Assembly: GCF_003334305.1 (NCBI RefSeq)
Contig: NZ_QOWS01000001.1
From: Escherichia coli
Lineage (GTDB): Bacteria > Pseudomonadota > Gammaproteobacteria > Enterobacterales > Enterobacteriaceae
Strand: one strand, 5' to 3'
DNA: 64,000 nucleotides
Part shown: positions 35,024-59,475 of the stretch, in pieces
Layout of the letters: each line of letters opens with the position of its first letter
Position numbering within the stretch: the first letter of the stretch is position 1
Position numbers and translations under genes: made by a program
The notes under the pieces: model-generated
What the model saw: the letters and a program-made list of their open reading frames with translations, nothing else
Database searches by the model: none
Told to the model about the DNA's origin: nothing

Positions 35024-41870
<6,847 letters not shown>

Positions 41871-43524: not shown

Positions 43525-44301
43525 ATGCGAAAGATTTTTCTTCCGTTGTTACTGGTGGCACTTTCGCCTGTCGTTCACAGTGAAGGTGTGCAGGAAGTCG
43601 AGATTGACGCACCGCTCTCTGGCTGGCATCCGGCAGAGGGCGAAGATGCCAGTTTTTCACAATCGATCAATTACCCGGCGTCGTCCGTCAACATGGCAGA
43701 TGATCAAAATATCTCAGCGCAGATCCGCGGCAAAATAAAGAATTATGCTGCGGCGGGTAAAGTTCAGCAGGGCCGGCTGGTGGTCAACGGTGCCAGTATG
43801 CCGCAGAGAGTTGAATCCGATGGTTCATTTGCACGCCCTTATATTTTCACTGAAGGCAGCAACAGCGTGCAGGTCATCAGCCCGGATGGGCAAAGCCGAC
43901 AAAAAATGCAGTTTTACTCAATGCCGGGTACAGGAACGATTCGTGCACGTTTACGGCTAGTTCTCTCGTGGGATACGGACAATACCGATCTCGATCTCCA
44001 TGTTGTCACGCCCGATGGCGAACACGCCTGGTACGGTAACACCGTGCTGAAAAACAGTGGTGCACTGGATATGGATGTCACGACGGGGTACGGACCCGAG
44101 ATTTTCGCCATGCCAGCACCAGTTCACGGGCGCTATCAGGTGTATATCAACTACTATGGTGGGCGCAGCGAAACGGAATTGACGACCGCCCAACTGACGC
44201 TGATCACCGATGAAGGATCGGTCAATGAGAAACAGGAAACATTTATTGTACCGATGCGTAATGCTGGCGAGCTGACGCTGGTGAAAAGTTTTGACTGGTG
44301 A
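43525..44301 (+). CDS. yfaP: DUF2135-family secreted protein YfaP (258 aa)
   Basis: Signal peptide MRKIFLPLLLVALSPVVHS; 4-nt gap after yfaQ. Confidence 0.85.
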   Translation: MRKIFLPLLLVALSPVVHSEGVQEVEIDAPLSGWHPAEGEDASFSQSINYPASSVNMADDQNISAQIRGKIKNYAAAGKVQQGRLVVNGASMPQRVESDGSFARPYIFTEGSNSVQVISPDGQSRQKMQFYSMPGTGTIRARLRLVLSWDTDNTDLDLHVVTPDGEHAWYGNTVLKNSGALDMDVTTGYGPEIFAMPAPVHGRYQVYINYYGGRSETELTTAQLTLITDEGSVNEKQETFIVPMRNAGELTLVKSFDW

Positions 44302-44355
44302 TCCATCCCTTCACACAACCTGGCTCTCTCTTTTTTCAGATAAGACTGCTGGGCG

Positions 44356-44399
44356 ATCTGCCGACGCCAGGATATAACCATTAACAAGCGTCGGCAGAT
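44356..44399. other. 12-bp perfect inverted repeat hairpin (atctgccgacgc ... gcgtcggcagat, 20-nt loop) in yfaP-rcsC intergenic region
   Basis: Coordinates confirmed by offset from yfaP stop; lies where K-12 carries the ato operon. Confidence 0.6.
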
Positions 44400-44575
44400 T
44401 GGTCATTTCTTATTTTTCGTACTGAGAACTGTCCATCTACTCCGGCTTTCCTGGTTAAGGCAATGGTTTCTAAGCGATACGCATTATTGCAATGGTGACA
44501 GAACATTGCGGTAACACGCTTTTACCGCTACCTTAACCACACTCCATCGGTCACCTGAGGCGGAGCTTCGCCCCT

Positions 44576-47414
44576 TTGAAATACCTTGCTTCTTTTCGTA
44601 CAACCCTGAAAGCCTCGCGCTACATGTTCAGAGCATTGGCGTTAGTGCTCTGGCTGTTGATTGCTTTTTCATCCGTTTTTTACATCGTTAATGCGTTACA
44701 TCAGCGAGAATCGGAAATTCGTCAGGAATTTAATCTGAGTTCCGATCAGGCTCAGCGCTTTATTCAACGCACCTCTGATGTGATGAAAGAGCTGAAGTAC
44801 ATCGCCGAAAATCGCTTATCGGCAGAAAACGGTGTGCTTTCCCCGCGTGGACGAGAAACGCAGGCGGATGTGCCTGCGTTTGAACCGCTGTTTGCCGACT
44901 CCGATTGTTCCGCAATGAGTAACACCTGGCGAGGTTCTCTGGAGTCATTGGCGTGGTTTATGCGCTACTGGCGCGATAATTTTTCTGCGGCTTACGATCT
45001 CAACCGGGTATTTTTAATCGGCAGTGATAACCTCTGCATGGCCAATTTCGGTCTGCGTGATATGCCAGTGGAACGCGATACCGCGTTGAAAGCTTTGCAT
45101 GAACGCATCAATAAATATCGAAATGCACCACAAGATGATAGCGGCAGTAACCTCTACTGGATCAGCGAAGGTCCGCGCCCTGGCGTCGGGTATTTTTACG
45201 CGTTGACGCCAGTTTATCTGGCGAACCGGTTGCAGGCGCTTTTGGGTGTCGAGCAGACCATCCGGATGGAGAACTTTTTCTTACCGGGTACGTTGCCGAT
45301 GGGGGTTACCATTCTTGATGAAAATGGTCATACCCTGATTTCGCTTACCGGACCAGAAAGTAAAATTAAGGGCGATCCTCGCTGGATGCAGGAACGCTCC
45401 TGGTTTGGCTATACGGAAGGGTTCCGGGAGCTGGTGCTGAAGAAAAATCTGCCACCCTCATCGCTAAGCATCGTGTATTCGGTGCCGGTTGATAAGGTGC
45501 TGGAACGCATTCGCATGTTGATCCTTAACGCAATTTTGCTGAATGTGCTTGCCGGAGCTGCATTGTTTACTCTCGCACGGATGTACGAGCGACGTATTTT
45601 CATTCCGGCGGAAAGCGACGCCCTGCGACTGGAAGAACATGAGCAGTTCAATCGCAAGATTGTCGCCTCCGCGCCAGTGGGTATCTGCATTTTGCGTACC
45701 GCTGATGGCGTCAATATTTTAAGTAACGAACTGGCGCATACCTATCTCAATATGCTTACGCATGAGGACCGCCAACGACTGACGCAAATTATCTGTGGGC
45801 AGCAGGTCAATTTTGTTGATGTCCTGACCAGCAACAATACCAATCTGCAAATCAGCTTCGTCCATTCGCGCTATCGTAATGAAAACGTGGCCATTTGTGT
45901 GCTGGTGGATGTTTCTTCGCGCGTGAAGATGGAAGAGTCGTTGCAGGAGATGGCACAAGCAGCGGAACAGGCGAGCCAGTCAAAATCGATGTTCCTTGCC
46001 ACCGTCAGTCATGAGCTGCGAACGCCGCTGTATGGCATTATCGGTAACCTGGATCTGTTGCAAACCAAAGAGTTACCGAAAGGCGTCGATCGGCTGGTGA
46101 CGGCAATGAACAACTCTTCCAGCCTGTTGTTGAAAATTATCAGCGATATTCTCGATTTCTCGAAGATTGAATCGGAACAGTTGAAGATCGAACCGCGTGA
46201 GTTTTCACCGCGTGAAGTGATGAACCACATCACCGCCAACTATTTACCGCTGGTGGTACGCAAGCAGTTAGGCTTGTACTGCTTTATTGAACCGGATGTG
46301 CCAGTGGCCTTAAATGGCGACCCGATGCGTTTACAGCAGGTCATCTCCAACCTGTTGAGTAACGCCATAAAATTCACCGATACCGGCTGTATAGTTTTGC
46401 ATGTCCGCGCTGATGGCGATTATCTCTCTATCCGTGTTCGCGATACCGGCGTGGGGATTCCGGCGAAAGAAGTGGTGCGCTTGTTTGATCCCTTCTTCCA
46501 GGTCGGAACGGGCGTACAGCGAAACTTCCAGGGGACCGGTCTGGGTCTGGCGATTTGTGAAAAACTGATCAGCATGATGGACGGCGATATCTCGGTAGAT
46601 TCAGAACCGGGAATGGGCAGCCAGTTTACCGTGCGTATTCCGTTGTACGGCGCTCAGTACCCGCAGAAAAAAGGCGTGGAAGGGTTGAGTGGTAAACGCT
46701 GCTGGCTGGCGGTCCGCAATGCGTCGCTCTGTCAGTTCCTGGAAACCAGTTTGCAGCGCAGCGGCATCGTCGTTACAACATACGAAGGGCAGGAACCGAC
46801 TCCCGAAGATGTGTTAATTACTGACGAGGTAGTGAGTAAAAAATGGCAGGGTAGAGCGGTAGTGACCTTCTGTCGTCGCCATATTGGTATTCCGCTGGAG
46901 AAAGCGCCAGGGGAGTGGGTACACAGTGTGGCTGCCCCGCATGAGCTACCGGCATTGTTGGCGCGTATTTATTTGATCGAGATGGAGAGCGACGATCCTG
47001 CTAACGCTCTGCCGTCGACGGACAAAGCGGTCAGCGATAATGACGATATGATGATTCTGGTCGTGGATGATCATCCGATTAACCGACGTCTGCTGGCAGA
47101 TCAGTTGGGATCGTTGGGCTATCAATGTAAAACCGCGAATGATGGTGTCGATGCGCTTAATGTACTTAGCAAGAATCATATTGATATCGTGCTTAGCGAC
47201 GTCAACATGCCAAATATGGATGGTTACCGCTTGACGCAACGCATTCGTCAGTTGGGACTGACGTTGCCGGTAATCGGAGTAACTGCTAATGCGTTGGCTG
47301 AAGAGAAGCAGCGGTGTCTGGAGTCCGGTATGGACAGCTGCCTGTCGAAGCCGGTAACGCTGGATGTGATAAAACAGACGCTGACGGTATATGCCGAGAG
47401 GGTCAGGAAATCGC

Positions 47415-47425
<11 letters not shown>
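44576..47425 (+). CDS. rcsC: hybrid sensor histidine kinase RcsC (949 aa, TTG start)
   Basis: MKYLASFRTTLK N-terminus, HisKA/HATPase motifs, C-terminal receiver domain (VVDDHPINRRLL...DVNMPNMDG). Confidence 0.96.
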
Positions 47426-47618
<193 letters not shown>

Positions 47619-57685: not shown

Positions 57686-59344
<1,659 letters not shown>

Positions 59345-59347
59345 TGA

Positions 59348-59475
59348 TGTGCCACATCCGGCATGGTATGCCGGATGTGGCGTATGCTGATAAGACGCGC
59401 CAGCGTCGCATCAGGCACCGGCTCGGGCGTTAGATGTCGGATGCGGCGTGACCGCCTTATTCGGCCTACGGGGTG
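59348..59475. repeat. REP element cluster (BIME-like) between mqo and eco
   Basis: Multiple palindromic units (gccggatgtggcgt..., gataagacgcgccagcgtcgcatcaggc, gtcggatgcggcgtgaccgccttattcggcctac). Confidence 0.75.

Follow-up and report, generated by a model that had tools for sequence, protein, structure and literature searches.

The interval between yfaP and rcsC was analysed within a 64-kb window, the whole stretch of DNA under study. The yfaP gene, which was the last gene of the yfa (alpha-2-macroglobulin) cluster, and the rcsC gene, which encodes the sensor kinase of the Rcs phosphorelay, were both located on the plus strand, and yfaP was transcribed towards rcsC. The yfaP ORF ended at 44301 and the rcsC ORF began at 44576, leaving a spacer of 274 bp, as the first-pass annotation had measured. 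In the identical region of strain CFSAN064035, the RefSeq annotation contained a YfaP family protein and rcsC, with no gene between them. The flanks matched the K-12 order, with yfaQ-yfaP on one side and rcsC-rcsB-rcsD on the other side. The corresponding K-12 interval, measured between the yfaP stop and the rcsC start, was 7,490 bp in length and contained atoB, atoE, atoA, atoD, atoC, and atoS on the opposite strand, which confirmed the K-12 gene order that the first-pass annotation had given. The features of the window at this locus were as follows.

43525–44301, plus strand: yfaP, an ORF of 258 residues.
44302–44325, no strand assigned: left breakpoint zone, 24 nt without detectable homology to the K-12 yfaP–atoB intergenic region or to ato.
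44326–44406, minus strand: atoS relic (codons 23–49), frameshifted, without a usable start context, and severed from the rest of the gene.
44350–44405, plus strand: hairpin with an RNA stem of 14+3 pairs (44350–44352 and 44354–44367 paired with 44388–44401 and 44403–44405).
44406–44417, plus strand: U-rich tract TTTCTTATTTTT, which adjoins the 3′ end of the extended stem and has T at 10 of 12 positions; a terminator-like tail.
44407–44496, no strand assigned: degenerate atoS start (codons 1–5) and atoS promoter/intergenic region, assigned by alignment to K-12.
44497–44575, plus strand: rcsC upstream block, the presumed promoter and leader, at the right edge of the allele-specific DNA.
44576–47425, plus strand: rcsC, an ORF of 949 residues.

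On the yfaP side, the window was homologous to K-12 with 97.9% identity up to position 44302 (blastn). On the right side, the homology restarted at 44497 with 99.8% identity, and the 194 bp between these two ends were specific to the allele. The RcsC protein shared 99.8% amino-acid identity with K-12 RcsC (tblastn). The rcsC upstream block was 96–99% identical in K-12, Escherichia sp. MOD1-EC7003, strain E69, and E. whittamii, and was common to ato+ and ato-minus genomes. When the six K-12 Ato proteins were used as tblastn queries, no intact ato gene was found within the 64-kb window. AtoB, AtoE, AtoA, AtoD, and AtoC gave no ato-gene match across the window, and the only matches of AtoS and AtoC outside the relic were at the level of paralogues, to the kinase and receiver domains of RcsC. 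A consensus promoter/terminator scan detected no sigma-70-like promoter in the spacer, and its only terminator calls were a hairpin within the conserved rcsC leader and another within rcsC.

The atoS relic and the breakpoints

The spacer retained a recognisable part of atoS. Positions 44327–44391 matched the 5′ coding region of K-12 atoS with 78.5% nucleotide identity over 65 bp (blastn, E 9e-6), and the minus-strand translation of 44406–44326, MTNLPTLVNGYILASADRPAVLSEKRE, was identical to AtoS residues 23–49, MVIVPTLTIGYIVETEGRSAVLSEKEK, at 14 of 27 positions (tblastn, E 9e-6). The statement of the first-pass annotation that the spacer held no ato-like coding sequence in any frame was contradicted by this match. 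The relic was found in its native position and orientation, with the flanking genes as at the intact locus. The adjoining segment, 44407–44496, was 57% identical to K-12 and 82% identical to E. whittamii. In the alignment to K-12, a 52-bp deletion had removed codons 6–22 and a further deletion had removed 11 bp, and the relic and its upstream remains were 22–43% diverged from the K-12 atoS region. In K-12, approximately 7.18 kb with the yfaP/atoB bidirectional terminator occupied the place of the left breakpoint zone, whose identity in alignment was 50% to E. whittamii and 37% to K-12.

When the window was compared with the K-12 atoSC-atoDAEB locus, the flanks were the same, and the relic was aligned to atoS codons 23–49 and the atoS–rcsC intergenic region. 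In contrast, about 7.2 kb (from atoB to approximately codon 50 of atoS) and the yfaP/atoB terminator were missing from the window, and the 5′ end of atoS was frameshifted and diverged to the extent given above. Judged from its sequence, the spacer is a deletion allele with a decayed atoS relic and not an ancestral absence, because the decayed 5′ relic and the degenerate atoS upstream region remain in it, and an empty insertion site cannot hold part of the inserted gene. Alignment to the K-12 boundaries, which the first-pass annotation had proposed for choosing between ancestral absence and deletion, placed the left breakpoint within 44302–44325 and the return of K-12 homology at 44497, and the relic pointed to deletion.

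The spacer is very probably the scar of one ancient ato deletion, followed by decay of the relic and formation of the hairpin within it. A single deletion would have removed approximately 7.2 kb of the ancestral atoSC-atoDAEB, beginning directly downstream of the yfaP stop codon and ending near codon 50 of atoS. The leftover 5′ end of atoS and its promoter region would have decayed through the 52-bp and 11-bp deletions, a frameshift, and substitutions at 30–43%. The ato-minus allele would have persisted beside the intact ato+ allele in E. coli, and also in E. whittamii.

The opposite polarity, in which the short yfaP–rcsC spacer is original and K-12-like strains gained atoSC-atoDAEB by insertion, is very improbable. 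It would fit the yfaP homologues of some related genera (Superficieibacter, Citrobacter youngae), beside which neither ato nor rcsC was found, and the mobility of ato, which was sufficient for its presence in the LAA island, but not the atoS-derived sequence, which occupied the right place and orientation and carried the frameshift and internal deletions typical of decay. Two other Escherichia lineages also stand against an insertion. E. albertii possessed a K-12-type terminator distal to yfaP (58 of 61 nt identical, in a contig that ended 61 nt past yfaP), and E69, a divergent Escherichia labelled E. coli with an rcsC 87.7% identical to that of K-12, possessed the full ato cluster in synteny with 92–98.5% identity. 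Furthermore, the ato locus was present in 3,932 E. coli genomes with 98.0–100% identity to K-12, which is the normal range within a species. The intact ato state also looks old. The E69 sequences indicate an exchange of the ato+ haplotype between Escherichia lineages, because the ato cluster of E69 was far closer to K-12 than its rcsC flank was.

Distribution and age of the ato-less allele

All counts in E. coli were made in a sample of 5,426 complete genomes. The 1.1-kb yfaP–rcsC junction was contiguous in 1,538 of these genomes, and the 194-bp spacer was present with 95–100% identity in 1,537 (28%). Alleles intermediate between the relic and atoS were absent from the 5,426 genomes; each match was either a spacer at 95–100% or an atoS sequence at 60–80%. 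The carriers of the spacer included O157:H7, O55:H7, O145, O111:H8, and O104:H4, and the spacers of O157:H7, O55:H7, O104:H4, and O111:H8 were 99–100% identical to that of the window. The window carries the commonest form of the ato-less arrangement, which was found in more than one quarter of sequenced E. coli.

The absence of ato at this site is already known, ordinary strain variation. E. coli W lacks ato (PMC5909237), and three of four tabulated Shigella species are listed without AtoSC (PMC9496106). The ato-less E. coli (W, O157:H7/O55:H7, and O104:H4) and most Shigella belong to the same phenotype class, with no ato operon, and the window differed from them in nothing substantive. These reports agree with the first-pass description of ato as a known variable locus, and its view that the finding concerns strain typing and metabolic capability, not a new element, is supported. 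The atoS relic, its presence in E. whittamii, and the relic-borne hairpin were not mentioned in the literature searched. They refine a known polymorphism and do not amount to a new type of element; what they add is modest, and nothing here alters current understanding.

AtoDAEB and AtoSC are needed for the catabolism of acetoacetate and short-chain fatty acids (PMC9329746). Carriers of the allele are without the AtoDA acetoacetyl-CoA transferase, the AtoE transporter, the AtoB thiolase, and the AtoSC regulator. They are predicted not to use acetoacetate or butyrate by the AtoDAEB route, unless ato is supplied elsewhere, for example by the LAA island, and the allele is useful in this respect for metabolic modelling and strain typing.

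YfaP was used in a scan of GTDB species, from which E. whittamii, E. albertii, MOD1-EC7003, and E69 were recovered, but no E. fergusonii, E. marmotae, or E. ruysiae. The same arrangement, with the relic and the 52-bp and 11-bp gaps, was present in E. whittamii with 88–91% identity to the window. The flanking genes of E. whittamii were 88–91% identical to either the window or K-12, which was equal to the divergence of the relic allele. The flanks of the window itself were those of an ordinary E. coli, with 98.9–99.4% identity to K-12. In none of the 300-bp segments compared were the flanks of the window closer to E. whittamii than those of K-12, and the idea that the allele had recently been imported with its flanks was rejected on this ground.

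Because the allele is found in E. whittamii at species-level divergence, the simplest reading of these comparisons is a single event, one ancient deletion that dates from about the time when E. coli and E. whittamii split, or from before it, after which both alleles were retained. This timing is based on short sequences (81–194 nt) and on one outgroup species carrying the allele, and the two species would show a similar picture if the short allele had passed laterally between them long ago. As a datable deletion scar across species, the empty site offers a clean marker for studies of recombination and ancestry around rcsC–gyrA.

Other lineages have, to judge from their junctions, lost ato independently. 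In MOD1-EC7003, an atoB′–atoS′ fusion was found, with the terminator kept and a REP element gained. In strain PCP06171, IS1A was flanked by a truncated yfaQ on one side and by a 414-bp fragment of atoS on the other side.

The ato genes were also found outside their native site. In the O178:H19 strain 2012C-4431, a complete ato cluster was located away from rcsC, in an island at tRNA-Phe with an integrase, IS66 remnants, and iha. This island is the LAA pathogenicity island (Locus of Adhesion and Autoaggregation, at pheV), in which ORF6–11 are described as atoSC-atoDAEB (PMC5539235; also PMC6174562, PMC9729726), and in which ato is an accessory, transferable module of LEE-negative STEC (PMC5539235, PMC6174562). 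A search for the atoS/island junction found 48 LAA-ato carriers, all of them LEE-negative-STEC-like. At least five of them (STEC1587, ST130, MDP9-27, OkiPb01692, and OkiPb01697) also carried the ato-less yfaP–rcsC junction, and count arithmetic, 3,932 − (5,426 − 1,537), gave approximately 43 genomes with an ato-less junction and ato elsewhere.

Many LAA-ato strains share the ato-less junction of the window, whereas the window displays the empty chromosomal site alone. The best 24-kb match to the window was strain A7 (orangutan, NZ_CP028767.1) with 100% identity, followed by eight near-identical genomes, and the 48 LAA-ato carriers included none of these nearest complete genomes. On this comparison, the source strain probably lacks ato throughout its genome, although absence from the native site is no proof of it, because LAA can carry ato. 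The reservation of the first-pass annotation that ato might lie elsewhere in the same genome is a realistic one for E. coli at large, as 48 genomes had LAA-borne ato, although the nearest complete relatives of the window were absent from these 48.

Structure and origin of the inverted repeat

The relic contained a perfect 12-bp inverted repeat, ATCTGCCGACGC/GCGTCGGCAGAT, at 44356–44367 and 44388–44399, with a loop of 20 nt that formed at most one internal pair. The plus-strand RNA of the hairpin had a folding energy of −29.7 kcal/mol (z = −4.56), and 0 of 200 shuffled sequences were as stable. Perfect inverted repeats of at least 12 bp with a loop of 3–40 nt were found at four loci in the 64-kb window, compared with a mean of 0.07 in 100 shuffles; the other three loci were REP-like palindromes just past rcsC, rcsB, and an ORF of 548 residues ending at 59344. 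The inverted repeat exceeds chance expectation, and the perfect repeat that the first-pass annotation had recorded at 44356–44399 was upheld by the fold and by the shuffles.

No further copy of the repeat arm was found within the 64-kb window, and the hairpin was single-copy per genome, with 1,547 places in 1,542 genomes. The 86-nt segment of hairpin and tail was identical in 1,385 of the 1,537 ato-minus genomes (90%). A search of 44200–44700 on both strands with the Rfam 15 covariance models gave no match at E ≤ 1. A REP/BIME or MITE-type palindrome was rejected, as the arm occurred at one site of the window and the hairpin once per genome; the genuine REP-like elements of the window differed from the hairpin in sequence. 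The terminal inverted repeats of an IS or transposon, or an excision footprint, were likewise rejected, as the arms lay within atoS-homologous DNA and no transposase ORF was nearby.

The inverted repeat was located wholly inside the atoS-derived DNA, 30–70 nt to the right of the left breakpoint. It was not a junction scar, because it lay inside the relic at this distance. The homologous segment of K-12 atoS was not palindromic, with a folding energy of −14.1 kcal/mol (z = −0.09). On these grounds, and on its single copy per genome, the first-pass suggestion that the repeat was a remnant of the indel junction was abandoned.

The deletion as a recent, lineage-specific event, with the inverted repeat as its footprint (either the terminal repeats of a mobile element or a scar left by recombination where the ends were joined), is hardly tenable. 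Recent independent ato deletions do exist, IS1-mediated in PCP06171 and as the atoB′–atoS′ fusion in MOD1-EC7003, but the present allele was common to 1,537 genomes of several serotype lineages and to E. whittamii, its relic had reached the 22–43% divergence from atoS described above, and its inverted repeat lay inside atoS-homologous DNA, away from the left breakpoint. The uniqueness of the arm within the window, the single copy of the hairpin in genomes, and the lack of any Rfam match and of any IS or transposase nearby also speak against a footprint.

When the arms were compared with atoS alleles, differences were found at 6 of 12 positions in the left arm, some of them clustered as a TTT-to-ACG change, and at 3–4 of 12 in the right arm. 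Relative to K-12, the relic differed at 10 of the 24 arm positions, and every arm difference raised the complementarity. Changes that all run towards complementarity appear unlike random drift and fit hairpin-templated (quasi-palindrome) mutation or selection. The enrichment of substitutions in the arms relative to the rest of the relic was not significant (Fisher p = 0.18).

Under the reading of one ancient deletion, the 12-bp inverted repeat would have formed within the atoS relic after the deletion, through nine or ten substitutions, all towards complementarity, by quasi-palindrome template switching and/or selection. Quasi-palindrome template-switch mutagenesis, the hairpin-templated correction of imperfect inverted repeats, is known from the E. 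coli mutagenesis literature. The relic resembles it in that clustered multi-base changes in one arm turned an imperfect repeat into a perfect one. It differs in that the process is read here from end states alone, with no intermediate allele seen.

Possible roles of the hairpin

The hairpin stem was located 50 nt past the yfaP stop, on the sense strand of yfaP. In K-12, the 73-bp yfaP–atoB spacer contained a canonical bidirectional terminator, with a stem of 14–18 pairs flanked by A- and T-runs and a folding energy of −25.9 kcal/mol (z = −3.6), which was missing in the window. With the deletion, this terminator would have been lost, and the yfa operon would have come to face rcsC directly. The relic allele would represent a minor case from nature in which a perfect hairpin formed inside a defunct gene fragment, at the very site of a lost terminator.

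When the relic at 44326–44406 was compared with E. whittamii, 4 of 81 positions were mismatched (95% identity), whereas the identity was 82% in the next 90 nt, 50% in the left 24 nt, and 88–91% in the flanking genes. The probability of four or fewer mismatches in 81 positions was 5e-4 when the rate of the adjacent upstream non-coding DNA was applied, and 0.05 when that of the coding flanks was used. A covariation test on five distinct alleles, a small and shallow sample, gave no pair changed on both sides, five broken pairs, and one wobble pair. Uncompensated stem changes were observed in O145 RM9154, TUM18780, and E. whittamii. The tail was a degraded U-tract in MB51/ECZP248, where it read TTCTTGTTGTT, and in E. 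whittamii, where it read TTTCTCATTGTG.

There is about an even chance that the inverted repeat is a functionless by-product. In that case, template switching or drift would have perfected a weak quasi-palindrome within the defunct atoS fragment, and the repeat would be too young, in population terms, to have decayed. The six changes of the left arm, including TTT-to-ACG, all made this arm complementary to the right one, which is the outcome expected of a single templated event. The variants that break the stem without compensation, the arm substitutions that were not significantly concentrated, and the lack of a match to a known RNA family are also consistent with an absence of function. However, the hairpin was already paired at 10 of 12 positions in the common ancestor with E. 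whittamii, and neutrality does not predict a segment that is better conserved than the adjacent non-coding DNA.

A selected role for the hairpin and U-tract, as an intrinsic terminator or insulator or as a 3′-end stabiliser of the yfa operon, recruited from the atoS relic, is a serious possibility that falls short of being probable. The role could be that of a replacement, because the deletion removed the yfaP/atoB bidirectional terminator, and the hairpin with its U-tract may, as a tentative proposal, serve as a substitute 3′-end or terminator element in the alleles that lost it. As yfaP and rcsC are co-directional, read-through from yfaP would reach rcsC. The stability of the stem, the U-tract TTTCTTATTTTT that followed it at once on the yfaP strand, and the location of the other perfect inverted repeats of the window, all directly past gene ends, are in keeping with such a role. 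The same is true of the conservation of the segment, both its 95% identity to E. whittamii against 50–82% in the neighbouring non-coding DNA and its identity in 90% of the ato-minus genomes.

The hairpin shared with Rho-independent terminators, such as that of K-12 yfaP/atoB, a GC-rich stem and a U-rich tract past the last gene of an operon on the sense strand. Nevertheless, its 20-nt loop was outside the usual range of intrinsic terminators (about 3–8 nt, rarely more than 13), and the hairpin, with a loop exceeding 8 nt, was not called by the consensus terminator scan. It also had no A-tract partner. The U-tract was poorly kept in E. whittamii and MB51/ECZP248, and five pairs were broken among the variants with no compensatory change. 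The first-pass suggestion of a yfaP terminator is plausible on the strong stem and the U-tract of the window, and is weakened by the long loop, the erosion of the tail, and the lack of covariation. A terminator role is compatible with the origin of the spacer as a deletion scar and concerns the role of the inverted repeat only.

A wider proposal, which is rather unlikely as a whole, joins the hairpin to the history of the locus. Selection in both E. coli and E. whittamii would have preserved the atoS relic and tail at 44326–44417 as an exapted RNA element of the yfa operon, either a replacement terminator/insulator or a 3′UTR-derived sRNA. The ato+ and ato-minus alleles would form a trans-species presence/absence polymorphism under balancing selection on short-chain fatty acid use, and LAA-borne ato would complement the loss in some STEC.

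The notion that the relic still encodes a small protein, a 31-codon minus-strand ORF (MTNLPTLVNGYILASADRPAVLSEKRESQVV), was rejected as next to impossible, for although an ATG-initiated frame was present and the RefSeq annotation of MB51 called a 41-residue hypothetical protein there, the frame had no plausible ribosome-binding site spacing, its boundaries varied among E. coli alleles, and in E. whittamii it was cut by a stop codon at codon 15, as read from the alignment.

Island-borne ato genes and implied exchange of the ato+ haplotype

The LAA (Locus of Adhesion and Autoaggregation) pathogenicity island at tRNA-Phe of the E. coli O178:H19 strain 2012C-4431 contained a complete atoSC-atoDAEB cluster, which shared 98.2% identity with K-12 and was neighboured by an integrase, IS66 remnants, and iha.

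NZ_CP024289.1 4796289–4803539 (8001–15251 of the comparison locus L025): island atoSC-atoDAEB of 2012C-4431

The LAA-borne ato arrangement was found in 48 complete genomes. The ato-less yfaP-rcsC junction was present in ~43 of these 48 by count arithmetic, and in at least 5 as confirmed by accession. Since most of the LAA-ato genomes had the ato-less junction, the chromosomal loss of ato appears to be offset by the island copy in these genomes.

In E69 (GenBank 'E. coli', CP089930.1; L010 496–7911), the ato genes were 92–98.5% identical to K-12, whereas the adjoining rcsC was only 87.7% identical. The identity of E69 to K-12 is mosaic, which implies that the ato+ haplotype has been swapped between Escherichia lineages through homologous recombination.

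Independent ato losses in other strains

In E. coli PCP06171 (L026 1763–3584), IS1A was flanked by a truncated yfaQ on one side and by a 414-bp piece of the atoS 5' end on the other, and therefore yfaP was deleted along with ato. This loss is an independent event and evidently a recent one. In Escherichia sp. MOD1-EC7003 (L004 10784–11369), the final ~110 bp of atoB (78% identity to K-12) were fused with the 5'-terminal 302 bp of atoS (96%), and this fusion is a third, independent ato deletion. The yfaP/atoB terminator was kept, and a REP/BIME element was inserted 3' of yfaP.

Conserved blocks in the yfaP-rcsC spacer

Within the decayed atoS relic of the spacer, TTTTTCAGATAAGACTGCTG (window 44331–44349) was the same in the E. 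coli relic, the E. whittamii relic, and every atoS allele examined, and GATATAACCA in the hairpin loop was likewise unchanged. The remainder of the relic outside TTTTTCAGATAAGACTGCTG was 30–40% diverged. The identity of the two blocks may reflect a retained cis element, or may be coincidental (probability about 0.05 on a crude calculation).

The 79-bp block 5' of rcsC (window 44497–44575) was 96–99% conserved across E. coli, E. whittamii, MOD1-EC7003, and E69, compared with ~88% for the rcsC coding DNA. This block presumably represents the strongly constrained promoter and leader of rcsC, and includes a hairpin.

44508–44528: hairpin GCGGTAACACGCTTTTACCGC

Other features of the window

Apart from the relic hairpin, all perfect inverted repeats of 12 bp or longer that the window contains were REP-like palindromes.

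47444–47480: REP-like palindrome, rcsC-rcsB convergent gap
47583–47614: REP-like palindrome, rcsC-rcsB convergent gap
59351–59381: REP-like palindrome, just past a 548-aa ORF ending at 59344

The alpha-2-macroglobulin gene yfaS (window 37251–41870) was a single unbroken ORF, whereas yfaS of K-12 RV308 is an annotated pseudogene with an internal stop.
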